In this document: in pieces, positions 301-57,937 of the stretch
Position numbering within the stretch: position 1 is the stretch's first letter
How the letters are laid out: every line of letters starts with the position of its first letter
NCBI GenBank assembly: GCA_037441385.1
Contig: JBBISH010000003.1
Location: 47,192 to 111,191 of the forward strand
DNA length: 64,000 nucleotides
DNA from: Myxococcales bacterium
GTDB lineage: Bacteria > Myxococcota_A > UBA9042
Reading direction: 5' to 3'
The notes under the pieces: model-generated
Databases searched by the model: none
The model's input: only the letters and a program-made list of their open reading frames with translations
What the model was told of the DNA's origin: nothing
Translations under genes and position numbers: made by a program

Positions 301-1563
301 TCACGATCCGGGGACGACCGCAGGCGTCGCCGCTTGGCTGAGCGTCACCGCTTGGCTGAGCATCACCGCGTCGGGCGGCGGGACCCACGCTTGACCAGCC
401 GGCGTGGCCAGCTCGGCCAAGCTCTTGCGGTACGCCGGCAGCAGCACCGGGGTGGCGAACACGACGCTGGCGTACTCGCGGCCCAGCGCGCTCACCAGCA
501 CGCCCGGCTGACGCTCGACCCAGCGGCCGGTCTGAGCGGACTTGCGGAGCGCGTCAAAATCCCCCGCGTCCATGGTAAAAAGTTGCGTCCGCTTGGCTAC
601 CACCAGCGCGCCCGAGAGCGGCAGGGGCCAGCAAGGCATCCGACCCGAGCGCAGCGCCCACGCCCCGTCGGCCAAGTCGCCGTCGCAGCTGCCGCTGGCC
701 AAGTGGAAGGTGCCGCGGCGCACGTCGCCGGGGTAACGGACCCGCAAATCGTCGAACTGAAACGACTCGGCGGGCACGGCGGGCAAGACGATCCCCTGCA
801 CGCTGTTCAAGTTGGCCAGTACGACGGCCAGGACCTGCAAGACCGCTCCCGCCCAAGCCAATCCGCGCAACCACCCCGGCGAAGCCCGCCTGCGACCGGC
901 GAGCCCAAGGGGCAGGAATTGCGGTCGCAGCACCACGCCCATCGTCAGGCCACCGACCGCACCGCCCAAATGCGCCACGCGATCCGTGTGTTGCCCGCCC
1001 ACGAGCAGCAGCGCCAGCAAGCACAGACCGGGCACGCCGATCATCAGCCAGCGCATCCGCGGACCCAACCGCGGCGCCAACTTGACACCCAGCGCCACCA
1101 GCGCCGCGACCAGGCCGTAGACGGACCCCGACGCGCCCACCGTCACTTGCAGCGGCGGGTTGCCCAGCATGGCGATGCCCGCGAACAGCCCAGAACCAAA
1201 CCAGATCAGCAGCAGCCGCGCCGGACCGTAGGCGGCTTCGATCGGCCGACCGACCACCCACAGCATCAGCGCGTTGACGCCCAGGTGCAGCACATCGGTA
1301 TGCGCCCAGGTGGGCGTGATCAGCCGCCACCAGTGCCCGCGGACGACGTAATAGGGAATGTGGCCCAAGGCCAGCAGCCACTGCGTGTCGGCGTTGTCGC
1401 CCAGCCAAAGGCCCGCACTGTCTTGCACGAACCAGCTGGCCAGGAGCGCCACGGTCAACCAGCCCACGCCCGGCCGGCGCATCCGCCACGCCAGCCCCAG
1501 CCAGCGCAGCCACGCCAGTTGCACCATGTCGCTGGGCAGTTGGGGCGGACTCGAACCGTCCAC
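301..1563 (-). CDS. Rhomboid-family intramembrane serine protease with C-terminal extension
   Basis: Multiple TM segments. It has the GASGSVYG catalytic Ser motif and a downstream AHLGGAVGG His motif typical of rhomboids (HLGVNALMLW region). Confidence 0.75.
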   Translation of the reverse strand: MDGSSPPQLPSDMVQLAWLRWLGLAWRMRRPGVGWLTVALLASWFVQDSAGLWLGDNADTQWLLALGHIPYYVVRGHWWRLITPTWAHTDVLHLGVNALMLWVVGRPIEAAYGPARLLLIWFGSGLFAGIAMLGNPPLQVTVGASGSVYGLVAALVALGVKLAPRLGPRMRWLMIGVPGLCLLALLLVGGQHTDRVAHLGGAVGGLTMGVVLRPQFLPLGLAGRRRASPGWLRGLAWAGAVLQVLAVVLANLNSVQGIVLPAVPAESFQFDDLRVRYPGDVRRGTFHLASGSCDGDLADGAWALRSGRMPCWPLPLSGALVVAKRTQLFTMDAGDFDALRKSAQTGRWVERQPGVLVSALGREYASVVFATPVLLPAYRKSLAELATPAGQAWVPPPDAVMLSQAVTLSQAATPAVVPGS

Positions 1564-4246: not shown

Positions 4247-5913
4247 GCGGCCCTCGCTTCGCTGCGGCGACGCCAGAGCACGATCGCGCCGATGGTCAGT
4301 GCCAGACCGATAGCCAGCCAGCGGGCCGAGGCGTGGCCCTGGCTGTCGAACCCAGGCCGATCCCAATCCGGCGGACGCTCGCCGCGATCCAAGAACTCCA
4401 ACTCCTTGCGGACCCGCTCGGTCTTGTCGGCAAAGGCGATCGCGCCGGGCGCTTCGGCGAGCTCGATGTAGCGGCGCAAATCGCGGGCGGCGGCCCTGGC
4501 GTCTTGATCCTGAAAGACTTTGCTGCGCACGTAGTACACATCCGGGTCCAGGGGCCCGATCTCCACCGCCTTGCGCGCGTACTTCTCGGCCTCGGCCTGC
4601 TGGCCGCTCCAGTAGTTGCCCATGGCCAAATAGATCGGCACGCGGGCTTCGTGCGGCAGCCGGGTTTCCAGCGCGTGGAACAACTCGATGGCGTGGGCAA
4701 AGTCGGCATCATAGAACACTTTGACTGCATACAGAAATTGCGCAACCACGTCGCCGGGGTCGCGGGCGCGTTCGGTCAACTTCGCGGCCAGCCGGTGCCA
4801 CGCTTGTTCGATGTCTGGCCGGCCCTTTGTGCCATGCATTCGATTGAAAACACCCGACAAGTGCGCCAGCACGGACGGTCGGTCCGGCGCCGCGTGGTAC
4901 AGCTCTTCGTACGTCGCCACCGCCTCTTCGAACTGCTGGGCGCGGAAGCAAGCGGTCGCCCACAGCGCCAATGAGTCGGGATCGTTGCGGAAACGCGCAC
5001 GCGCCACCTTGGCCCAGCGCATCTCGGCGGCGGCATCGCCCATCCGCCCGGCCAGCGCTGCACGCTGCAGCAAATCTGCCAGCGAAGCACTTTGACCGTC
5101 GCCGAGTTGCTGGTCCATCAGTGCGGCCGCCGCCGGCCACTGGCCCACCGCGTTGTACCAGTCCAGCTCGCGGTACACCTCGCAAACGTGGGGCTTGGCA
5201 GCCCGTTTGCGGCACTCGGCGCGCGCAAGGTCGGCCTCGGCTGCGCGGCCCAGCGACGCCAGCGCGGCGGCCCGCAGGGGCAGCACCTCGGCCGACACGC
5301 GAGCCACATCCTGGGTCGCCTGCACCACTGCGCCCTGGTACGAACCGGCCAAGTCGCGCTCGCCCAACTGCGCCAGCAGAACGGCCAGTCCCCACGCGAG
5401 CGTCGGCTCGGCAGCGGTGGGGGGCCACTGCTTGGCAAGCGCCAGCGCAGCCTGTTTGGCGCCAGCCGGATCGCGCAACGCCTGCTCGCGGGCGATCAGG
5501 CCCAGCTGCTGCAGGGGCTCGACGGTCGGGGCCTTGCCGGTCGCCTCCACCTGCGTCCAGGCAAACTGCCCGTCCAGTCCGCGCAGCCGCTCGATCAGCG
5601 CCGTGCGCAAGGGCCCTTGCGGCCCTTCAACATGGAACTGCTTGGTGTCGTCGGCCGTTGGGCTGGCGTCGGCCGAGGGGCGGGTCACGTCGAATTGCTG
5701 GGAATCGGCGTCGGCTTTCTGCAAGACCACCTGGATGCGGTCTTGGCGCACCACCACCGACTGCGGCCGATAGCCGTCGCCCAGCGGCGGAGCCTGCGGG
5801 TCGGTCAACGCCCGCGCCAACAGCGGCTGCATTTGCGGGCTCACCACCCACAGCGCCCATGCAGACGGAACCTGGACCAACCACAACGCAATGACGATGA
5901 GACTGCGAACCAT
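4243..5913 (-). CDS. TPR-repeat protein with N-terminal signal/anchor
   Basis: Start MVRSLIVIALWLVQVPSAWA (cat verified at 5911-5913); many TPR-like helical repeats. Confidence 0.65.
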   Translation of the reverse strand: MVRSLIVIALWLVQVPSAWALWVVSPQMQPLLARALTDPQAPPLGDGYRPQSVVVRQDRIQVVLQKADADSQQFDVTRPSADASPTADDTKQFHVEGPQGPLRTALIERLRGLDGQFAWTQVEATGKAPTVEPLQQLGLIAREQALRDPAGAKQAALALAKQWPPTAAEPTLAWGLAVLLAQLGERDLAGSYQGAVVQATQDVARVSAEVLPLRAAALASLGRAAEADLARAECRKRAAKPHVCEVYRELDWYNAVGQWPAAAALMDQQLGDGQSASLADLLQRAALAGRMGDAAAEMRWAKVARARFRNDPDSLALWATACFRAQQFEEAVATYEELYHAAPDRPSVLAHLSGVFNRMHGTKGRPDIEQAWHRLAAKLTERARDPGDVVAQFLYAVKVFYDADFAHAIELFHALETRLPHEARVPIYLAMGNYWSGQQAEAEKYARKAVEIGPLDPDVYYVRSKVFQDQDARAAARDLRRYIELAEAPGAIAFADKTERVRKELEFLDRGERPPDWDRPGFDSQGHASARWLAIGLALTIGAIVLWRRRSEARAA

Positions 5914-6171
5914 GGCCGCAGTATAGGCACAGGCGCAGGCCGGCGGCCACCCACACTGCAGCAATCCTGTACTTTCAGGACGTTTCTGTGCCCACGCGGT
6001 CGCGTATTGCCGTCGCGCCCCCATGTCGCTACCCTGCCGCTACCCTGCCGCTACCCCGGCGCGGCGCTCGTCGCCCGCTGATCCAGCTCAGGGCACTGAC
6101 CCCGATCTCGGATACTGATCCCGGTCTCGGGTAATGAACAAGGTCTTGAGCGATGACCCAGAGGACGCACC

Positions 6172-8181: not shown

Positions 8182-9246
8182 AAAATGCGTCACCTTTCGA
8201 TGTCGTTGACGGTCGCCCTGGCCGCGTTGGCGCTGGCTCCGGCCTGCAAGAAAGAGCAACCCGCCGAGGCGCCCAAGACCGAAGCCCCCAAGGCCGAAGA
8301 GCCCAAGCCGGCGGATCTGCCCAAGCCCGCCAGCCCGGCCGCCATGCCTGGTGCCGCGGGCGCGGCCGCGATGCCCGGCGCCGTCAGCGCCACTTCGGCG
8401 ATGGAAGGCCCCTGCCCGCTGCCCGGCGAGGACCCGGCTTCGTGCCCGGCCAAGCCTGCCACCGTCGACGACGACATCAAGATCGCCCATGTGCTGATCG
8501 GTTGGGACGGCTCGCTGCCCGGCAAGAAGGCCGGCCGCGACGAAGCCGGCGCCCAAAAGCTCGCCCAGGAAGTGGCCCACAAGGCCCGCACGCAAGGTGC
8601 GGACTTCGTCAAGCTGATCTGGGAATTCAGCCAGGATCCTGGCCCAGGCATCTACGAGGTGACCCCGCCGATGCGCCGCCGCTTTGTGCCCGAGTTCACC
8701 GCCATGGCGCTGTCTTTGGGCGTCAATCAGGTCGACATCGCCAAGACCCGCTTTGGCTTCCACGTGATGAAGCGGATGCCCTTCGACTTCGTCGCGCCCG
8801 AGAAGCCACTGGTCGCGGTGATGAAGGACCCCTGCCCGGCCGAGGGTGAGGATCAGGCCGCCTGCCCCAGCAAGCAGGATCCCAAGCCGACCGAAGTCGA
8901 GGTCACCCACATCCTGATCGCCTACCAGGGCGCGATGCGCTCGACCGCCACCCGCACCAAGGAAGAGGCGGAAAAGCTGGCGATCCAGCTGTGTCACGAC
9001 GCGCGCAAGAAGGGCGCCGACTTCGCCAAGATCAAGGAAGCCGCCAAGTCGGACGATCCCGGCCCGGGCACCTACCCGGTCAGCAAGGACTCGCCGATGG
9101 TGGCGCCGTTCAAGCAACTGGCGCTGTCGCTGGGCGTGGGCCAGGTCGACGTGGTCGAGAGCGACTTTGGCTACCATGTCATGAAGCGCGGCGCGGCGGC
9201 CCCCGCTGCCGGCGGCGCGGACCTTGAGGCCAAGCCAAAGAAATAG
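8182..9246 (+). CDS. Parvulin-type peptidyl-prolyl cis-trans isomerase lipoprotein, two PpiC domains
   Basis: Start MRHLSMSLTVALAALALAPAC (lipobox) with GAGGA RBS. Two rotamase-domain repeats (…HVLIGWDG…FGFHVMKR… and …HILIAYQG…FGYHVMKR…). Confidence 0.8.
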   Translation, partial: KMRHLSMSLTVALAALALAPACKKEQPAEAPKTEAPKAEEPKPADLPKPASPAAMPGAAGAAAMPGAVSATSAMEGPCPLPGEDPASCPAKPATVDDDIKIAHVLIGWDGSLPGKKAGRDEAGAQKLAQEVAHKARTQGADFVKLIWEFSQDPGPGIYEVTPPMRRRFVPEFTAMALSLGVNQVDIAKTRFGFHVMKRMPFDFVAPEKPLVAVMKDPCPAEGEDQAACPSKQDPKPTEVEVTHILIAYQGAMRSTATRTKEEAEKLAIQLCHDARKKGADFAKIKEAAKSDDPGPGTYPVSKDSPMVAPFKQLALSLGVGQVDVVESDFGYHVMKRGAAAPAAGGADLEAKPKK

Positions 9247-9265
9247 TCCGACCAAGGAGCGCGTC

Positions 9266-10312
9266 ATGGTGGTTGCGTGGCAAGACGAACTCGACGCGGT
9301 GCGCGATCGCTGGGTCGCCGCCGCCGCCCAGGTGCCCGACTTGGCCGGCCTGCGGTCGCTGGAAGTGGAAGCGCTGGGCAAGCAAGGCGAAGTGACCCTG
9401 CTGGTCCGCAAAGTGGGCACCATTCCGCCTGAGGATCGGCGGGCCTACGGCGCGGCCGCAGCGGCCGTGAAAGGCCAGGTCGAGCAGGCCGTCGAAGCGC
9501 GCCGCCAAGGCCTGGAACGGGCCGAAGTCGAAGCGGAACTCGCCGATGACAGCTTTGACGAGACCGTGCCGGCCCACGCTGCCTTGGGGCGAGCGGCTCG
9601 CATGGGCCACAGCCACCCGCTCAGCCAAGTGCAGGCCGAAGTGGAGGCCGTGTTCACCTCGATGGGCTTCCACGTACTCGACTACCCCGAAGTCGAGAGC
9701 GAATTCGACAACTTCGAAGCCCTGAACATCCCGGCCTGGCACCCTGCGCGCGAGATGCAGGACACGTTTTGGCTCGAGGGCGGGCATTTGCTGCGCACCC
9801 ACACCTCATCGGGTCAAGTGCGGGCGATGCACGCGTTCCGGCCGCCGTTCCGGGCGATTTTCCCTGGCAAGGTCTACCGTTACGAGGCCACCGACGCGAG
9901 CCACGAGCACACCTTCCATCAGCTGGAGGGCCTGCTCATCGACCGCCACGTGTCGGTGGGCCACCTGCTCGACTCGATGCGCACGTTGCTGTCGGCGATC
10001 CTCAAACGCGACGTGGAAGTCCGTTTGCGGCCAGGCTATTTCCCGTTCGTGGAGCCGGGCTTCGAGCTCGATGTCCAGTGTCAGTTGTGCGGCGGCACGG
10101 GGTGCTCGGCGTGCAAGCAGTCCGGCTGGCTCGAATTGCTGCCGTGCGGGCTGGTGCACCCGCAAGTCCTGCGCGCCGGCGGCCTGGATCCGGCCGAATG
10201 GCAGGGCTGGGCCTTTGGCCTGGGCCTGTCGCGGCTGGTGATGATGCGCTTCCAAGTACCCGACGTCCGACTGCTTTTGTCGGGCGATCTCCGGTGGCTA
10301 AGCCAGTTCTGA
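9266..10312 (+). CDS. pheS: Phenylalanine--tRNA ligase alpha subunit
   Basis: AAGGAG RBS. Class II aaRS motifs (…FRPPFRAIFPGKVYR…, …FPFVEPGFELDV…GWLELLPCGLVHP…). Confidence 0.95.
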   Translation: MVVAWQDELDAVRDRWVAAAAQVPDLAGLRSLEVEALGKQGEVTLLVRKVGTIPPEDRRAYGAAAAAVKGQVEQAVEARRQGLERAEVEAELADDSFDETVPAHAALGRAARMGHSHPLSQVQAEVEAVFTSMGFHVLDYPEVESEFDNFEALNIPAWHPAREMQDTFWLEGGHLLRTHTSSGQVRAMHAFRPPFRAIFPGKVYRYEATDASHEHTFHQLEGLLIDRHVSVGHLLDSMRTLLSAILKRDVEVRLRPGYFPFVEPGFELDVQCQLCGGTGCSACKQSGWLELLPCGLVHPQVLRAGGLDPAEWQGWAFGLGLSRLVMMRFQVPDVRLLLSGDLRWLSQF

Positions 10313-27227: not shown

Positions 27228-28865
27228 CTACTTGTGCGAGTGGGGCTTGCCAAGCGTCCCCTGCATGAGCATGACATGGGCGCGGTAGCGGCCCACTTCG
27301 GCCGCCCGGCCCGGCCGCTCCGGCACGACCGAGGTGATCCCCGCGGTCCACACCACCAAGAACACCGCGGTGGCACCCCAACTCCGCCAGCGCGGGGCGA
27401 CCACGCTACCGTCCGGGTTGGGCAGTCGCAGCACCGCGATCCACAAGCCCGCGATCATGGCCAAAAACACCACAAAGCTCGCCGTGGCGGGCAGCCCCAG
27501 CCACTGCCCCACGCTGGGCGAAAACGCCTGCTGAAGCAGCAGCGGCACCACAAGCTCTAGCACTGGCCGCTCTAACTGGGCAAAGTGGTACGGGAACGTG
27601 GCCACCGTGGGCACATGCAGCAACACCGCCAGACCCAGCGCCGCCCACAAGCCCGCCCGCAGCCACCACTTCAACGGAGCCTCCAGCGCGATGGCCAGGC
27701 CCCAGCCCAGCAGCGGTACGATGGGGAGCAAATGCCGTGGCCCGGCACAGTCGCCGGCCGGCCAGTCGGCAAAACCCGACACGAACAGCGCGTAGCCGCC
27801 CGACAGCAGCAACGCCGCCAGCGCGTCCAGCCGCTGACCTGCCGGCGCGTGCGGCGACGCGGCCCGCCACCCCAGTGCGACGGCCGCCGCCGCCAGCCAC
27901 GGGGCGTGGTAGAACAGCCCGCGTCGCGCCGACAAGAGCAGCCCGACCAGCGCGTCGGCCTGCGGCGGCCGGAAACCCAAGAAGCCCGTGTCCATGATGG
28001 CCTTGAGCTGCTGGTCCCCTTTGTACTGGTAGGTGAACCGCAGCGGATGCCCAAGAACCCATTGATTGTAGCCAAGTTGCAGCACAACGCCGGCAACAAG
28101 GCCGCCCCAGATCGGCCACGTCGCGGCAAGCCGCCCCGGCACGTCCCACGCGCGCCAGCCCTGCCCGGCTGCCGGCAAGGGTAGACACCGCAGCCATGCG
28201 TACAGGGCAACCCCGGCGGCCAGCACAAAGACGGGGGTGTCGGTCAGTCCTCCCAGCGCCAGCGCGCCGCCCGCCGCCAGCCCCAAACGCCTTTGCGGCC
28301 GACCGTCGCTGGCCGCCACCCCAAAGAACGCCACCGCCACCGCCGCCGCCGCCAGCGCGTGGCCAAAGAACAGCGACGCATACACGACCAGCGGGCTTGC
28401 GGTCGCCAGCGCGACGGCGGTCAGGGCGACGGACCGCGGCGCGAGCCCAAGGGTCGCCAGGTAGCGCGCCAACGCGTACAGCGCCAGGAGCAGCGGCAAG
28501 ACCATCGTGGCCAGGGTGGCCAGATAGCCGAATTTCCATAGCCCGTCCGTGTCCACATCGGGCTGCAGCGCCCGCAAGGGCAGGTACAGGGGCAGCGCCA
28601 GCAGCGACGCACCCGGCGCCTTGTCCATGTAGACGTGACCGCCATATTCGCTGCGGTCCACAGGAGTTGCACCGTGACGGGCGACCACTGTGTCCAGCTC
28701 GGGCCGCCCCGTCTCAACCACGGCCTGCACAAAGTACAAGCGCATCGCCTCGTTGGCGGTCTGCAGGTAGGGCCAATGGTGACAGTACCAGGCCCACACC
28801 AAGGCGACCACCCACAGCAGCCCAGAAGGCAGTGGGCGGCTTGTTGGGTTGGCGGCGGTCGACAT
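27228..28865 (-). CDS. Polytopic membrane glycosyltransferase (GT39/GT83 PMT/ArnT-like)
   Basis: At least 10 predicted TM helices; the N-terminal loop has a DKAPG motif reminiscent of the DKPP/DE motif of PMT_2 family enzymes. Confidence 0.55.
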   Translation of the reverse strand: MSTAANPTSRPLPSGLLWVVALVWAWYCHHWPYLQTANEAMRLYFVQAVVETGRPELDTVVARHGATPVDRSEYGGHVYMDKAPGASLLALPLYLPLRALQPDVDTDGLWKFGYLATLATMVLPLLLALYALARYLATLGLAPRSVALTAVALATASPLVVYASLFFGHALAAAAVAVAFFGVAASDGRPQRRLGLAAGGALALGGLTDTPVFVLAAGVALYAWLRCLPLPAAGQGWRAWDVPGRLAATWPIWGGLVAGVVLQLGYNQWVLGHPLRFTYQYKGDQQLKAIMDTGFLGFRPPQADALVGLLLSARRGLFYHAPWLAAAAVALGWRAASPHAPAGQRLDALAALLLSGGYALFVSGFADWPAGDCAGPRHLLPIVPLLGWGLAIALEAPLKWWLRAGLWAALGLAVLLHVPTVATFPYHFAQLERPVLELVVPLLLQQAFSPSVGQWLGLPATASFVVFLAMIAGLWIAVLRLPNPDGSVVAPRWRSWGATAVFLVVWTAGITSVVPERPGRAAEVGRYRAHVMLMQGTLGKPHSHK

Positions 28866-28921
28866 GCGGCCAAGCTAGCGCGGCCGACCAAAAAACGCGA
28901 GAGGCTCGTCGCTCGCTGGCC

Positions 28922-29056
28922 CTGATTCGGAATCCGTCTAGTTCGGCTCGAAAACTCCGGCAATTCTGCCGGCCCGAACCGGGGTCCCCGCCTGATTCTC
29001 GCCGGTTGCAGACCGGGTCAGAGAAGCCGTACCTGCGCGAATCAGGTGGGGTTCGT
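28922..29056 (+). repeat. Copy 1 of a ~135-nt structured intergenic element (identical 26-nt core ACCGGGGTCCCCGCCTGATTCTCGCC at 28978-29003)
   Basis: About 75-80% identical to the second copy at 29869-30000 (by eye). Contains the palindrome-like CCGGGGTCCCCGC and a long-range inverted repeat CCTGATTC…GAATCAGG. Confidence 0.6.
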
Positions 29057-29421
29057 ATGACTGGCGCGACACGTCAGCGTTGCAAGAGGCGTGGGGCTGG
29101 GGTAGAGTAACCAAGCTGTGCGCGCCGGGGCGAGGGCAACGCCTTGGATTTCGTGCGCCGAACCTTGGTTTCTTTGGCCATCTGCCCAACCCGCGGCCAC
29201 TCCGCCAGCACTTGGCGAAAGGTACGTCGGCGCAGGGCATGGCGGTCGGAGATCGGTCGGCGGAGAGAGAGAGAGGAGAGCGGAAGAGAAATCATCGGAA
29301 AGGGAAGCGTGCCATGAGGCGGGCCAGTACCCGTAGTGACCTCGGCACCGCGCGCAGTCAACCAGCGCAGAACTCGCAAGCTCAGCCAACGCTTGCCAGC
29401 AAGTCCAACAACGGAGACGCA

Positions 29422-29871
29422 ATGAGCTTCTACATCCAGCGCGACGGTCAACCCAAGGAGTACCCCATCCAGGCGCTGATCGATATGGTCAAGAACGGTA
29501 GCCTGCGCTCCGACGAGTTCGTTTTCGACGGCCGCATGCAAAAGTGGGTGGGCGCGACCCAGGTTGCCGAGCTCGCCGATGCGTGGAAGGCCGTGCAGTC
29601 GGGTGGCGCCAAGGCAGCCAGCGCCCCGGCGGCAGCCCCGTCGGCCCAGGCGCCCGCGGCGGCTGGCGGCGACAAGAAGCGCAGCAAGAAGTTCAGCGAG
29701 ACCTCGTGGTTCATGTCCGCCGTCACCTACGAAGAAGGCGGCCTGACCCCCAGCGAGCTGGCGCCGATGGAAGCCGGCGACAAATTCGAGAATCTGCCGC
29801 CCGTCCCGGACGAGCTGCGCAAGAAGTTCTCGCTGTCGATCGCCGACCTGGACGCGAACAAGAAGAAGTAA
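29422..29871 (+). CDS. DUF4339 (GYF-like) domain protein
   Basis: GGAGA RBS. N-terminal …FYIQRDGQPKEYPIQALIDMVKNGSLRSDEFVFDGRMQKWVGATQVAEL… matches the DUF4339 pattern (WY..dGqq.GP…L..l…G.i..dtlVW.eGM.eW). Confidence 0.55.
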   Translation: MSFYIQRDGQPKEYPIQALIDMVKNGSLRSDEFVFDGRMQKWVGATQVAELADAWKAVQSGGAKAASAPAAAPSAQAPAAAGGDKKRSKKFSETSWFMSAVTYEEGGLTPSELAPMEAGDKFENLPPVPDELRKKFSLSIADLDANKKK

Positions 29872-30000
29872 TCCGGAATCCGTTTCAATCGGATCGAAGC
29901 CCCGGCCGTTTCTTCGGGCCCGGACCGGGGTCCCCGCCTGATTCTCGCCAGTTGCCGAGCGAGTGGGTGAAGCCGTACCGGCGTGAATCAGGTGAGGCTC
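29869..30000 (+). repeat. Copy 2 of the ~135-nt structured element (core at 29924-29949)
   Basis: Begins at the stop of the DUF4339 gene and ends about 40 nt before the aldo/keto reductase start. Same core, palindrome and CCTGATTC…GAATCAGG inverted repeat as copy 1. Confidence 0.6.
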
Positions 30001-30038
30001 CAGCAAGCCCGCGCGACCCGCCCCCCAAAGGACTCGCC

Positions 30039-31004
30039 ATGAAGCTGCGCCGCTTGGCCGGCACCGACCTTGACCTCTCCGTGGTCGGTGTAGGCTGTTG
30101 GGCCATGGGCGGACTCTGGTGGGGCGACGACGTCCGCGACGACGACAGCATCGCCGCCATCCACCGCGCCTTGGACGTGGGCATCAACTGGTTTGACACC
30201 GCCCCGCTGTACGGCCACGGGCACGCCGACGAAATCCTTGTGCGCGCGCTGGGTCCCAGACTGCGCGACGTGGTGATCGCCACCAAGGTCGGTGTGCGGT
30301 GGGATGGCGAGGGCATGCACGCCCGCAGTGATCTGACCCCCGAGCACGTGCGCGCCGACGTGGAGGCGAGCCTGCGCCGACTGGGTCTAGAGCGCCTGGA
30401 CCTGGTGCAGGTGCACTGGCCGTGCGAGCTTGGTACGCCGCTCGAAGCGACCTTGGAAGCCCTGTACCGCCTGCGGGACGAGGGAAAGGTGCGCTACCTG
30501 GGCCTCTGCAACTACAGCGCTCCCCAGCTGCGGCAGGCGGCGGCGGCCGGCGGCATCGACACGCTGCAGACCCCATACTCGATGCTGCGGCGCGAGTTCG
30601 AGGCCGAACTGCAACCGCTGGTGCTCGAGTTCCCGGGCCGCAGCGAGCCCTTGAGTACCCTGGCCTACGAGCCCCTATGCCGCGGCCTGCTGACCGGCAA
30701 GTTCAACGCCACCAGCCGCTTTGCCCAAAGTGACCTGCGCGCGCGCGACGACCGATTCCAAGGCAGCCGCATGCTCCGCGCCCTGACAATCGTCAGCCGT
30801 CTGCAGCTGATCGCCAAGCGCCACGGCGCCCCGCTGGCCGCACTTGCGATTGCGTGGGCACTGCGGCAACCCGGGATGACTCTTGCGATTGCCGGGGCCA
30901 AGCGTGCGGACCAAGTGGCGGTCAACGCCCAAGCTACCGACTGGCTGGATCGCGAAGACCTGTGGGCCGACGTCGACCGAGTCGTGGGCAGCTTCCGCGG
31001 ATAG
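30039..31004 (+). CDS. Aldo/keto reductase
   Basis: AKR signature (…GINWFDTAPLYGHGHADEIL…, …IATKVG…, …GKVRYLGLCNYS…). Confidence 0.9.
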   Translation: MKLRRLAGTDLDLSVVGVGCWAMGGLWWGDDVRDDDSIAAIHRALDVGINWFDTAPLYGHGHADEILVRALGPRLRDVVIATKVGVRWDGEGMHARSDLTPEHVRADVEASLRRLGLERLDLVQVHWPCELGTPLEATLEALYRLRDEGKVRYLGLCNYSAPQLRQAAAAGGIDTLQTPYSMLRREFEAELQPLVLEFPGRSEPLSTLAYEPLCRGLLTGKFNATSRFAQSDLRARDDRFQGSRMLRALTIVSRLQLIAKRHGAPLAALAIAWALRQPGMTLAIAGAKRADQVAVNAQATDWLDREDLWADVDRVVGSFRG

Positions 31005-50234: not shown

Positions 50235-51782
50235 CTACTTCTGCAGGCTGCAGTAGCTCGGCCAGCTGTCGCCCAGGCTGCTGACGAAGGGCGAAGCCTC
50301 GCCCAACTTGTGCGCGAGCAGGAACTTGGCCGCGTAGGCGCCGCCCTCTTTGGGCCACTCGTGCTTGGTGCCGTGGTTGCAGGCGACGACCACGTGGCCC
50401 GAGCCCTTCAGGCTCTCGATCAACGACTTGGCCATCTTGTCGAAGTTCTGCTCGTAGGCAAAGTCGTCCACACCGCCCCAGCTGACGACAAACGGCACGT
50501 TGCCCGACTTGGTGGGCCAGGCGTGCAGGTAGCCGCCCGAGAACGGCGTCGCCGCGGCCACCACATCGCTCTTGTGGATGCCCAGGAAGGTCGACATCAG
50601 GCCGCCGCCCGACATGCCGGTCACGTAGATGCGCTTGGTGTCAAACTTGTACTGCGCGCCGGCGCACTTGAGCAGATCGTCAAAGAACACTAGGTCGGGG
50701 TTGTCGTTCTTGAACAGCGGCGAGCCGTAGTACCAGTCGGTCTTCAGCACGGCCTTGCCCGAAGCGGCGCGCTCGGAGCGGGGCGCGATCAGGATGAACG
50801 GCGTCTTCTGCTGCTCGGCAGTCAGGAAGCTGTCGTCGATCATCGAGCCCGGCTCGCCACCCACGCCGTGGTACAGGAAGATCACCGGCAGACCGGTCAC
50901 ATCGCTGACATCTTTGGGCAGCTGCACGATGTAGGTACGGCTGCGCTCGGCGCTGGTCATGGTGTTCTCGCCGGGCAGGAGAGCCGGGCAAGTCGCGATG
51001 CCGGTGTAAGTCTTGGCGGTGTTGCCTTCGCAGCTGGACTCGGGCGGATCGGTTTGCGTGCCGAACTCGACGGCCTTGAACTTGCTGCCGGTCAGCTTGA
51101 CGCCAAAGTCGGGAACGTTGCCTTCCAAGTCGCCGCAGAACGAATTGAGGCCCGTGAACTTGCCGGTCATGATTAGGCTCAGCTTGACGTCGGTGTCGGT
51201 GGGCGAGCCCTTGGCCGGTAGCACCACGTCGCCAAAGTCGATGGTGAACGAGCCATCGGCCTTGACGACCACGTCGCACGCTGCGGCCATGATGTCCGTG
51301 ACTTCCTTGGTCTTACCCGAAACGGCGCGCAGGGTGATCAGCTTCATCACGCCGCCGCCATCGGCGGTCTGATGGCCGACGATGCTGGCCTTGAAGAACA
51401 GCTGCAAACCGCCGAACGGCGCGGCCTGGGCAGCCAGGAACAGGCCTTGCGGCGGGGTCAATTTGTCGTCGCCAGCCACCGCCGCGGCCTCGTCGGCGTA
51501 CTTGCCGCACCACTTGGTGGGCCCGGTGGCGGTGTCGGCGCTGGTCGTGTCGCCGCCCGCAGTGTCGGCGCCGGTCGTGTCGGCGCCGGTCGTGTCGGCG
51601 CTGGTGGTGTCGCCGCTGGTGGTGTCGCCGCCTTTGGCGTCGGTGCCGCTGGAACTATCCGAGCTAGCGTCGGTTTTGCTGGTCGTGCTGGTGGTGGTTC
51701 CGGCGTCGCTGCCACAGGCGGCCAAGGCCAGCGCCAGACCGGCGCTCAAGAAACCGCAGGAAATTCGGGTACTAAGCTTCAT
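50235..51782 (-). CDS. Esterase lipoprotein, PHB-depolymerase/feruloyl-esterase-like alpha/beta hydrolase
   Basis: Start MKLSTRISCGFLSAGLALALAAC (lipobox), then a Ser/Thr/Asp/Gly-rich linker. Catalytic region …VIFLYHGVGGEPG… with nucleophile elbow GMSGGG. Confidence 0.75.
   Translation of the reverse strand: MKLSTRISCGFLSAGLALALAACGSDAGTTTSTTSKTDASSDSSSGTDAKGGDTTSGDTTSADTTGADTTGADTAGGDTTSADTATGPTKWCGKYADEAAAVAGDDKLTPPQGLFLAAQAAPFGGLQLFFKASIVGHQTADGGGVMKLITLRAVSGKTKEVTDIMAAACDVVVKADGSFTIDFGDVVLPAKGSPTDTDVKLSLIMTGKFTGLNSFCGDLEGNVPDFGVKLTGSKFKAVEFGTQTDPPESSCEGNTAKTYTGIATCPALLPGENTMTSAERSRTYIVQLPKDVSDVTGLPVIFLYHGVGGEPGSMIDDSFLTAEQQKTPFILIAPRSERAASGKAVLKTDWYYGSPLFKNDNPDLVFFDDLLKCAGAQYKFDTKRIYVTGMSGGGLMSTFLGIHKSDVVAAATPFSGGYLHAWPTKSGNVPFVVSWGGVDDFAYEQNFDKMAKSLIESLKGSGHVVVACNHGTKHEWPKEGGAYAAKFLLAHKLGEASPFVSSLGDSWPSYCSLQK
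51535..51640. repeat. About 15-nt tandem DNA repeats (GGTCGTGTCGGCGCC-like) encoding the TTSADTTGADTTGAD linker of the esterase
   Basis: Seen directly; coding low-complexity on the minus strand. Confidence 0.6.
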
Positions 51783-51879
51783 CGTCGTGTTCCATGCAAA
51801 GGGGGTGGTGCCGCAAAGGCTACAGGCCACGGCGGGTCCGCGCAAGTCAGAAGGCGCGCGATCGCGACAGAGGTGCGGC

Positions 51880-52923
51880 GACTTTGCTATGCTGGCCACG
51901 GAGGTGTGGATGCTAGGGCGCGTGCGGATTGTGCTGGGCGGCTTCGCCTTGCTCTTGGTCTGCGTGGGGCTGACGGGCTGTGCCGGCTCGTCGGGGAGCA
52001 GCGACACGGGCAACGCCAGCGATGCCAAGACGGCCGATTTGCCGGGCGACGTGACCGACACGACTCCCCGCGTGCTGGTGGGCGGCGCCGACGATGGCGG
52101 CAACGGGTTCATCGACTGGGCCAGCGGCACCTACCCGGCCACGGTCATCCACGGCCCGCAAGGCGGCCAGCACATCTGGGTCAGCGCCAAGACTAGGAAC
52201 TTGTTCCCCAACAAGGCGCGGATCTCGGTCACGATGTACCTGGAAACGCCCGGCGCCGCCGAAGAAGTGGTCAAACCGGGCACGACCACCGTGACCGGCA
52301 CGCTGAAGGCCTTTCCCGCCCCGCCCGAACTGCCCAGCGAGTGGCTCATCTACGCTGGCCTGCCGGCCTTTGTCAGCCAACCCTGCAAACTGGCCCAACA
52401 AAAGGTGCGGGTCCAGGTCGAGGTCAGCGACCTCTACGGGGTACTGGCGAGCAACAAGGCCTGGATTCGCCCCAAGTGGACGTTTATGCCGTGCGTGGTG
52501 GCGATGGGGGTGGCGGCGGACGGCAAGAGCCCGCAACCGTGGCCGTTCTTCCCGGACGAGGGCGCCAAGCCGGCCCTGGTGGCTGCGCCCAGCGGCGGAG
52601 CGGAATTCCAAGTTGGCGTGCGGACTTTGGGCCTAGCGCCGGCCGCCCCGATGGTGGCGGTCACGCTGATGACCATGCCCACGGACAACACGGAAGGCCA
52701 GATTCTGCCGCCGGGCCGCACGGCGGTGACGACCAGCGCCATCGCGGATCCGCTTGGCGTGGCAGGTTGGTCCGGCCTGGCGGCGGTAAAGGTGCCGGTG
52801 GCGAACCCCTGCCAGGCCAAGAATCAGCGGCTGCGGCTGGTGGTCGAAGTGGCCGACGGGGACAAGCCGTTGGGGTCCGGGCAATCGATCGTCTTGCCCA
52901 GCTGGGGTGGCACGTGTCCGTGA
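51880..52923 (+). CDS. Lipoprotein with duplicated uncharacterised ~130-aa module
   Basis: Signal peptide with lipobox LTGC. Module 1 is GNGFIDWASG…GPQGGQHIWVSAKT…PAFVSQPCKLAQQKVRVQVEVSD…WIRP; module 2 ends …PVANPCQAKNQRLRLVVEVADGD…. Confidence 0.55.
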   Translation, partial: DFAMLATEVWMLGRVRIVLGGFALLLVCVGLTGCAGSSGSSDTGNASDAKTADLPGDVTDTTPRVLVGGADDGGNGFIDWASGTYPATVIHGPQGGQHIWVSAKTRNLFPNKARISVTMYLETPGAAEEVVKPGTTTVTGTLKAFPAPPELPSEWLIYAGLPAFVSQPCKLAQQKVRVQVEVSDLYGVLASNKAWIRPKWTFMPCVVAMGVAADGKSPQPWPFFPDEGAKPALVAAPSGGAEFQVGVRTLGLAPAAPMVAVTLMTMPTDNTEGQILPPGRTAVTTSAIADPLGVAGWSGLAAVKVPVANPCQAKNQRLRLVVEVADGDKPLGSGQSIVLPSWGGTCP

Positions 52924-56938: not shown

Positions 56939-57937
56939 TTAGTACGGACGGTAGCCCGGTGCATAGCCTGGGGGATAGGTGCCTGGGGGATAGGTGCCCG
57001 GGGGATAGGCGCCCGGCGGATAGGCGCCCGGCGGATAGGCGCCCGGCGGTGGATAGGGAGGAGGAGGGGGCGCTGGGCGAAAACTGCGACTTTTCAGCAT
57101 GTCCCAGCTTGGCCACGTGATCGATAGGCCGATCAGGCCCATGACCGGCGGCAGGTTGAATTGGGCCGAAAGCGTGCCCTTCTGGTTTTGCTGCACGACA
57201 AAGTTGGCGTCGCTGAGGACATGGAAGTCCTTGCTCGTCACGCGCCCTTGCGAATCGTAGCCGCCTTGCGTCGCGGTGATCACCAGGTCTTCGGATCGCG
57301 AGCTGCCCTGCGTCAGGCGCGCCGACACCTGGACAAAGGCGTGCGCCCACCAGGCCAAGGTGTATTCCGCGCCGCCGGTCAAGTACCAACCGGTGCGACT
57401 CTCTTTGGAGGTGTACTTGACCGCGTCGCCGTTCTGGATGATGGCGTTGCCGATGCTCACCGGGTCCTGGATCGCCAGCTTGTAGTTGGCCTCTACCTTG
57501 GCGTCTAGATTGAGCCAGCTGATGCCCGCCAACGCGCGCAGACGGCCGTCGCCGCTGGCCAGCGGGTGCTTGTACAGCGCGTCGACTTGCAGCATGTCCA
57601 GGTTGGCTTCGCTGGACAGACCCGGCGCAACCACAAGCCGTGCAAAGGGGAAATCGAGCCCCAGCGGAATCTGCGTCATGCTACCCGTGGGACCGACCTT
57701 GCCGCTTTGCGGGGCCAGTTTGACCGGCAGCGTGAAGGCCTTGCCGGACCAACCCGGCGGGCTCGTCGCGACCATGTCGACGCCAGAAAACGTATACGCG
57801 CCGTCCACTTTGGGGGTCATGACGGTCTGCTGTACGCCCACGCTGCAGCCAGCAACGGCCGCTGCGACGAGCAGGGCGGTACTGGCCCTGACCAGACTGC
57901 GCCGCATTCCGATTGCGCCTGCCACGCCGGTCGGCAT
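56939..57937 (-). CDS. Lipoprotein with C-terminal tandem Y-P-P-G repeats
   Basis: Lipobox VAGC. Beta-rich body, then C-terminus …PPPPPYPPPGAYPPGAYPPGAYPPGTYPPGTYPPGYAPGYRPY. Confidence 0.55.
   Translation of the reverse strand: MPTGVAGAIGMRRSLVRASTALLVAAAVAGCSVGVQQTVMTPKVDGAYTFSGVDMVATSPPGWSGKAFTLPVKLAPQSGKVGPTGSMTQIPLGLDFPFARLVVAPGLSSEANLDMLQVDALYKHPLASGDGRLRALAGISWLNLDAKVEANYKLAIQDPVSIGNAIIQNGDAVKYTSKESRTGWYLTGGAEYTLAWWAHAFVQVSARLTQGSSRSEDLVITATQGGYDSQGRVTSKDFHVLSDANFVVQQNQKGTLSAQFNLPPVMGLIGLSITWPSWDMLKSRSFRPAPPPPPYPPPGAYPPGAYPPGAYPPGTYPPGTYPPGYAPGYRPY
56965..57050. repeat. Tandem 15-nt DNA repeat (GGATAGGTGCCTGGG-like ×5-6) encoding the YPPGA repeats
   Basis: Seen directly; coding on the minus strand. 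Confidence 0.6.

Follow-up and report, generated by a model that had tools for sequence, protein, structure and literature searches.

Two intergenic repeats bracketing a DUF4339 gene in a Myxococcales genome are probably copies of a MITE-like transposable element

A 64-kb stretch of the Myxococcales bacterium assembly GCA_037441385.1 (contig JBBISH010000003.1, positions 47,192 to 111,191; hereafter the window) carries two similar intergenic segments, one on either side of a gene for a DUF4339/GYF_2-like protein. [quoted passage not shown] Such an element would be ordinary in kind, and the particular family appears to be undescribed: no sequence similarity to described repeat families was detected in Rfam or in BLAST searches of plasmid and phage collections, and a search of the literature turned up no description of a myxobacterial MITE or repetitive extragenic palindrome (REP) family of this kind. 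A literature search on T-N-A targets in the IS5 family of insertion sequences (IS) gave nothing specific. The segments have several of the properties by which MITEs are recognized, being shorter than 500 bp and non-coding, occurring as dispersed copies with sharp boundaries, carrying a flanking duplication, and occupying sites that are filled in one genome and empty at the orthologous position in another.

An initial interpretation of the window based on its letters (the sequence-only reading) had described two similar copies of about 135 nt in the same orientation. This pair was recovered here at 132 nt per copy, as direct repeats on the same strand with 77–79% identity by pairwise alignment and by a repeat search (28925-29054 against 29871-30000 at 79%), in which they form the second-largest repeat family of the window. 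The gene context it had given for both copies likewise agrees with our reading of the sequence and with the gene calls (Table 1). Copy 1 lies in the divergent spacer between a gene for a 545-amino-acid (545-aa) protein and the DUF4339/GYF_2 gene, 58 nt upstream of the ATG of the former, and copy 2 directly follows the DUF4339 stop codon, with 35 nt between its end and the ATG of an aldo/keto reductase gene. Element boundaries were refined using the family alignment and the empty-site comparison described below. According to the covariance model of the family, these are the only two copies in the window, lying 946 nt apart and bracketing DUF4339, and the longest complete open reading frame (ORF) inside the element measures 0–24 aa and is not conserved between copies.

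Both insertion sites can be recognized as empty in related genomes. Relatives were compared via orthologs of the 545-aa protein (its relatives are annotated as “Myxococcales bacterium” and “Deltaproteobacteria bacterium”, which agrees with Myxococcota), namely L026 (89%), L027 (86%), which belongs to the groundwater metagenome-assembled genome (MAG) GCA_016218865.1, and P0004 (82%), with DNA compared for L026 and L027 and gene coordinates only for P0004. Gene order is the same in all three, running from the reductase through DUF4339 and the 545-aa gene to a metallo-beta-lactamase and TgpA, and 31–32 nt separate the stop codon of DUF4339 from the ATG of the reductase in these relatives, vs. 167 nt in the window. 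At the DNA level, the relatives read AAGAAG-TAG-ACC/CAC-CGCGCGACCC where the window reads AAGAAG-TAA-(132 nt)-CAA-GCC-CGCGCGACCC, i.e., the excess of 135 nt corresponds to the 132-nt element plus 3 nt, and its removal restores the spacing of the relatives exactly. The reconstructed empty site, AAGAAGTAA-GCC-CGCGCGACCC, has the same layout as the TAG-ACC-CGCGCGACCC of the relatives. The divergent-spacer site of copy 1 is similarly empty in L026 and L027, where the spacer is correspondingly shorter: removing the element and one triplet from the window leaves 38 nt, vs. 37 nt in L026. No element was detected by the covariance model on the L026 and L027 loci.

The reverse situation is found for a MAG copy (in L005) that separates a GH31 gene from an RNase_T-like gene. 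These two genes overlap by ATGA, without any element, both in the window’s own genome (L028, from the Logan sample that also holds the window’s genes) and in the relative L029. Such reciprocal filled and empty sites are the signature of transposition rather than of a conserved regulatory feature. The most economical scenario is a gain of both window copies in the window’s lineage, since P0004, the most distant of the three relatives, is also empty. In L030, with a 55% ortholog, the DUF4339–reductase spacer is 172 nt long (9107-9278) and includes hairpins of its own; its sequence is unrelated to the element, so this junction was expanded independently.

The repeat is dispersed well beyond the window. 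Scanning one genome per GTDB species with an 18-nt core probe yielded at least 19 matching loci, and at least 10 separate contigs of GCA_016218865.1 (JACRCU01, labelled “Deltaproteobacteria bacterium”) carry the whole element of about 130 nt, with sharp boundaries and unrelated flanks (flank similarity is at noise level, and information content falls at both ends). Nine other listed matches, in Micromonospora, Haloferula and others, have only the 18-mer in common and were set aside as chance. A covariance model was built from 12 copies, after which two more were added from MAG contig L022, bringing the full copies to at least 14 on 11 sequences from two genomes (2 in the window and at least 12 in the MAG). 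The search for further genomic copies proposed in the sequence-only reading was thus run through the core probe and the covariance model and returned at least 12 of them in GCA_016218865.1, and the small intergenic repeat family that it listed among its options is what the many MAG contigs display. All family statistics below rest on 14 copies, a small sample and a biased one, as the probe by which 12 of them were found lies in the 5' arm.

Pairwise identity among copies ranges from 60 to 95%, and the two window copies, at 77%, are no closer to each other than to MAG copies, which argues against a recent local duplication as the origin of the pair. MAG copies adjoin unrelated and ordinary genes, including a hybrid histidine kinase, an inositol monophosphatase, a methyltransferase, an RNase_T-like protein and a GH31 glycosidase, and are oriented in sense (~7) as well as antisense (~4) to neighbouring transcription, based on ORF calls from frame composition. 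Two other candidate interpretations were rejected along the way: a minus-strand 5' leader of a single gene family, as both the downstream sequences and the genes are unrelated, and a longer element marked by similarity between the right flanks of the L005 and L009 copies, as this similarity is at noise level. A scan of JGI metagenomes with a pattern leaving both stem arms free gave two loci, both chance according to the covariance model, a scan of viral contigs gave one chance locus, and the distant relatives L030–L032 (38 kb) contain no copy. Because these searches, together with those of plasmids and phages, returned chance matches or none, the family appears to be restricted to a narrow group of uncultured bacteria resembling Myxococcota.

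Elements from the two genomes are 69–84% identical (16–31% different) and hardly differ in the core, whereas fourfold-degenerate sites of the flanking orthologs are 34–42% different between the window’s genome and the two relatives. This conservation is most simply explained by element-level selection, in which a copy is propagated further only if its binding sites and structure are intact. Some copies are clustered: L022 includes three within about 4 kb (1070-1199 on the minus strand, 1530-1660 and 5049-5179 on the plus strand), two of which bracket a gene for a 1117-aa hybrid histidine kinase, and this cluster along with the window pair suggests local hopping or a regional preference. In addition, Logan k=31 contigs L001, L002 and L003 (SRR11582159) end inside the element, at window positions 28957, 29004, 29926 and 29945. 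Because the window copies share only 26 identical nucleotides, these k=31 breaks suggest that further, closer copies exist in the source sample or genome.

Flanks of the 14 copies were next compared after anchoring on the model ends. Conservation extends from one base left of model position 1 to position 131, which gives the element its length of 132 nt. Its consensus is 5'-T[A/G]CCAAATCC...GGTGCA[T/C]A-3', with termini T[A/G]CCAAATCCG... on the left and ...GGTGGGGTGCA[T/C]A on the right, and the left end of the window copies reads T[T/C]CGGAATCC. The flanking triplets resemble T-N-A. Of the 42 positions compared between left and right triplets, 26 match, and the middle base agrees in 12 of 14 copies; permuting the partners gives means of 17.1 and 4.4, respectively (p = 4e-4 over all positions, 5.5e-5 at the middle base). 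Three of the 14 copies have a duplicated triplet that doubles as a TAA or TGA stop codon of the gene next to it (window 29869-29871, the left flank in L005 at ~6106-6108, and the right flank in L016 at ~1427-1429), and in L005 the insertion divided an ATGA overlap of stop and start. In a 67% GC genome, T-N-A sites at which an insertion is tolerated may be few and may include stop codons. With a T-N-A target, TGA and TAA stop codons would be preferred landing sites that are regenerated by the duplication, and overlapping ATGA junctions could be entered without truncating the upstream protein.

Taken together, these observations best fit the following scenario. A transposase encoded elsewhere in the genome would bind the ends of the element and make a cut with a 3-bp stagger at a T-N-A target triplet, as deduced from the duplication, after which repair would copy the triplet onto both sides of the element. 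Because of this 3-bp duplication, we favour a staggered cut by a DDE-type transposase over the single-strand mechanism of REP/RAYT or IS200/IS605 elements. Two such landings would have occurred within 1 kb in the window’s lineage, one at a TGA of the divergent spacer, 58 nt from the 545-aa gene, and one at the TAA/TAG stop codon of DUF4339/GYF_2, with the left duplicate now ending the gene. Core and long hairpin would most likely be kept as only intact copies can move again, and any effect on neighbouring genes would be a by-product.

Several observations weigh against this interpretation. Perfect triplets are seen in only three of the 14 copies, and the register of the duplication was picked after viewing the flanks. 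Terminal inverted repeats are weak, with a mean of 9.5 matches over 24 terminal positions vs. 6.4 ± 1.5 in column permutations (p ~0.03) and nearly equal values at other offsets; the matches are mainly the terminal TA/TR and a sub-terminal ATTCG at positions 16–20 from each end. Neither a transposase nor a parent IS was seen among the fetched loci and the neighbours examined, with no dedicated genome search having been made. The family sample comes from just two genomes. The element is also not AT-rich (GC of 0.62–0.65 vs. 0.67 for the window), unlike the typical MITE (PMC10969869). Finally, the right junction of the L005 copy (~5957-5973, minus strand) includes 17 extra nucleotides, GGAGCAGGCGATTGGCC, with a GGAG Shine-Dalgarno-like motif ahead of the GH31 ATG; these have no counterpart in two relatives, where the genes overlap, and CCATGA is found on both sides of the insertion.

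Within the element, the most conserved block across the family alignment is the core region. The identical 26-nt core announced in the sequence-only reading, ACCGGGGTCCCCGCCTGATTCTCGCC, was confirmed as two exact matches, with exactly two occurrences in the window and none in 100 shuffles even when up to three mismatches were allowed. With 30 of the 131 aligned positions mismatched, an uninterrupted match of 26 nt has a probability of p = 0.015, and the core is on this basis preferentially conserved. The near-perfect 13-bp palindrome that had been proposed is present within the core, except that its perfect part spans 11 bp (CGGGG-T-CCCCG) and the outer pair of the 13-mer is mismatched. The long-range inverted repeat is also there and exceeds the length first claimed, with 15 pairs and two internal mismatches. 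In one L022 copy (5049-5179), which was found without a sequence probe, both palindrome half-sites have changed together to CAGGG-T-CCCTG, a single case. The conserved palindromic core may be a candidate protein site, e.g., for a transposase.

The structure predicted for the element is asymmetric. A small hairpin lies near the left end, the long hairpin stops about 7 nt short of the right end, the two are unrelated in sequence, and a conserved 58-nt 5' module lies outside the long hairpin. In L015, the right flank of the copy at 1349-1479 includes a second GGAATCAGGTG (~1309-1333, minus strand), which matches the 3' stem arm, lies 15 nt past the right end of the element, and is what remains of another copy or else a 10–11-mer arising by chance. 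Taken alone, the long hairpins fold at –31 to –36 kcal/mol. That of copy 2, which has no U-tract, is placed between co-directional genes that were once 31 nt apart, where it could influence how the mRNA is processed or how stable it is, rather than work as an intrinsic terminator.

Other readings of the two segments were weighed against transposition. A cis-regulatory RNA, i.e., a riboswitch or leader read from the plus strand for DUF4339 and the aldo/keto reductase, had been put forward from the sequence, and is in line with the position of both window copies 5' of plus-strand genes, with the stable predicted fold, and with one G-U pair that is kept in 13 of 14 copies and fits the plus strand. 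We regard it as extremely improbable, given that the element is missing from the reductase-side spacer of three relatives and from the upstream site of both relatives compared at the DNA level, and that the remaining copies flank genes as unrelated as those for histidine kinase, inositol monophosphatase and GH31 in either orientation. The Rfam check suggested at the outset was performed and matched nothing meaningful: Rfam 15 gave no match at the gathering threshold in the whole window, and a permissive search (E up to 10) of 28850-30100 gave only chance-level results (E >= 1.5, 13–18 bits). The 15-pair stem provides no compensatory change either, with 0 pairs changed on both sides, 5 invariant, 4 changed to wobble, and 6 varying by mispairs only, while the RNAalifold covariation term is slightly unfavourable (+0.52) and plus-strand fold z-scores reach only –1.5 to –1.6. 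Since stem transitions produce plus-strand G-U in 4 cells and also C-A or A-C, a minus-strand wobble, in at least 6 cells (12-copy alignment), the pairing is protected on neither strand. Covariation had also been claimed for the apical TTGC hairpin; over the 14 copies, 37–59% of cells pair depending on register, a single apical pair varies on both sides, and no compensatory pair is supported. An equally remote prospect is that the repeats are gene-cassette recombination sites, whether integron attC-like or the attL/attR of an island, that brought in DUF4339. Same-orientation, imperfectly palindromic repeats do bracket one small gene here, as they bracket the histidine kinase gene in L022. DUF4339 is nevertheless found at the same place and with the same neighbours in the repeat-free relatives, which leads us to view the two copies as independent insertions into the spacers flanking it and removes the ground for the cassette recombination initially envisaged. 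Furthermore, each copy has its own 3-bp duplication, most other copies are solitary, reading the sequence revealed no GTTRRRY-type core site, and no integrase was present among the neighbours examined.

Two further alternatives accept that the repeat is mobile. It could be a hairpin-based single-strand-DNA element, derived from REP/REPIN or IS200/IS605 and moved by a tyrosine (HUH) transposase or RAYT that would recognize sub-terminal hairpins and insert beside a short target without target duplication, and the lack of convincing terminal inverted repeats, the asymmetric ends with hairpins and the semi-conserved T-N-A-T of the left flank all point in that direction. REP/RAYT and IS200/IS605 families are not known to duplicate their target. 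The copy-by-copy co-variation of flanking triplets (12 of 14 middle bases) and the excess of element plus 3 nt argue against such an origin, as do the unrelated end hairpins and the absence of a GTAG or CGTC tag before the palindrome, a feature of REPs (PMC3733652), making it quite unlikely overall. The other alternative is a mobile repeat co-opted by its host, either through the core as an operator for a DNA-binding protein or through the hairpin as an element for RNA processing, stabilization or attenuation. Support for this comes from the core being kept beyond expectation and forming the most invariant block of the family, from a conservation between genomes exceeding that of neutral sites, from the paired half-site change in L022, from the two copies inside formerly tight operon junctions, and from such effects being documented for other MITEs (PMC10969869). 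Selection for transposability would explain the conservation equally well, the core invariance in the MAG is partly built in by a search probe lying within the core, only one compensatory case is available, and the copies have no preferred orientation with respect to genes; we therefore rate co-option as unlikely. A regulator-binding module dedicated to these particular genes, as once suggested, conflicts with the absence of the element from the orthologous loci. A mobile regulatory module, in which a putative protein site in the core or a hairpin active in RNA would place the neighbours of each new insertion under shared control, has little likelihood in our estimation, and in the window it would apply to DUF4339–reductase, a formerly tight operon junction.

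The MITE-like reading can also be placed among known systems. Prokaryotic MITEs such as Correia/NEMIS of Neisseria, ERIC, RUP and QMITE of Coxiella (PMC10969869) are likewise short, non-coding, multi-copy and intergenic. They share with the window element short direct duplications that decay with age, a stable predicted stem-loop, presence/absence polymorphism, and landing sites in operons and beside start or stop codons. In contrast to them, the window element has weak terminal inverted repeats, a strong inverted repeat that is internal and asymmetric, a GC-rich composition like its host, and a 3-bp T-N-A duplication. The target duplication of Correia elements is TA. The three-nucleotide insertion site is as in the IS1031 and IS427 subgroups of the IS5 family and in the related PIF/Harbinger-Tourist elements of eukaryotes. 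IS1031 and IS427 groups have a T-N-A or TWA target preference, and IS5-family ends are of the GAG/GGA type, unlike the 5'-T[A/G]CC...GCA[T/C]A-3' of the window element. IS3-family enzymes make 3-bp duplications and have TG...CA ends. The IS3 family and the IS1031/IS427 groups of IS5 are equal candidates as sources of the enzyme. Members of the IS1031 group in the IS5 family commonly recognize three nucleotides as their insertion site (PMC2516522). REP and REPIN sequences (PMC3116915, PMC3337134, PMC3733652) are similarly dispersed intergenic repeats with a long imperfect hairpin, conserved arms and a variable apex, and are similarly persistent in lineages and more conserved than neutral sequence. 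The window element differs from these in having a matched 3-bp duplication and an extra 58-nt 5' module, and in lacking the GTAG or CGTC tag that precedes the REP palindrome (PMC3733652).

For annotation, positions 28926-29057 and 29872-30003 should be entered as mobile-repeat insertions and not as a riboswitch, operator or cassette site. To a poorly studied group of uncultured bacteria resembling Myxococcota, the family would add a MITE-like element that duplicates 3 bp at T-N-A and tends to land on stop codons and operon junctions. The repeat interrupts short-read assembly of these genomes, as the broken Logan contigs illustrate, its copies provide insertion-polymorphism markers, and its termini offer a handle on the responsible transposase. 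Should the repeat influence the expression of genes at tight junctions, it would supply regulatory variation of natural origin.

Table 1. Features of the repeat locus, in window coordinates.
Feature	Position	Strand	Remarks
Copy 1, 132-nt non-coding repeat element	28926..29057	+	Covariance model 141.8 bits; no internal ORF
Copy 2, 132-nt repeat element	29872..30003	+	Covariance model 128.4 bits
26-nt core, copy 1, with 11-bp palindrome and 5' arm of long inverted repeat	28978..29003	+	Exact match to ACCGGGGTCCCCGCCTGATTCTCGCC
26-nt core, copy 2	29924..29949	+	Exact match to ACCGGGGTCCCCGCCTGATTCTCGCC
Long imperfect hairpin, copy 1	28986..29051 (arms 28986-29002, 29035-29051)	+	Folds, consensus structure; –35.5 kcal/mol alone
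Long imperfect hairpin, copy 2	29932..29997 (arms 29932-29948, 29981-29997)	+	Folds, consensus structure; –31.2 kcal/mol alone
Left target-site duplication, copy 1, TGA	28923..28925	+	Identical to 29058-29060
Right target-site duplication, copy 1, TGA	29058..29060	+	Perfect match to 28923-28925
Left target-site duplication, copy 2, TAA (DUF4339/GYF_2 stop codon)	29869..29871	+	Relatives have TAG, a 3-nt spacer, then CGCGCGACCC
Right target-site duplication, copy 2, CAA (one change from TAA)	30004..30006	+	Pairs with 29869-29871
545-aa protein gene, without Pfam domain	27228-28865	-	ATG at 28865
GYF_2/DUF4339-like protein gene, 149 aa	29422-29871	+	ATG at 29422
Aldo/keto reductase gene	30039-31004	+	ATG at 30039

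Regulatory signals around the two copies were also surveyed. A scan of 28600-30300 for promoters and terminators found neither a promoter-like site nor a terminator within the elements, and hand inspection of the locus revealed no sigma-54 or outward sigma-70 promoter worth claiming. The 35 nt upstream of the reductase, including its AAAGGA, are intact after the copy 2 insertion. Just downstream of copy 1, a block at 29076-29165 is near-identical in the window, L026 and L027 within an otherwise diverged spacer, and holds TTGCAA-17 nt-TAGAGT, weak sigma-70-like hexamers (8/12) under the cut-off of the scan. The actual promoter or leader of DUF4339/GYF_2 is probably this block, which is conserved in all three genomes; copy 1 sits about 20 nt upstream of it. 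A second conserved block upstream of DUF4339 (29362-29421) lies right before the ATG, and the same upstream region includes a purine-rich, (GA)n-like tract, GGAGAGAGAGAGAGGAGAGCGGAAGAGAAATCATCGGAAAGGGAAG, at 29262-29312, where both relatives have gaps of at least ~18 nt. Elsewhere in the window, arrays of 15-nt tandem repeats at 51502-51663 and 56966-57040 fall within ORFs (51382-52923 on the plus strand and 56939-57937 on the minus strand, respectively), and presumably encode pentapeptide repeats unrelated to the element.

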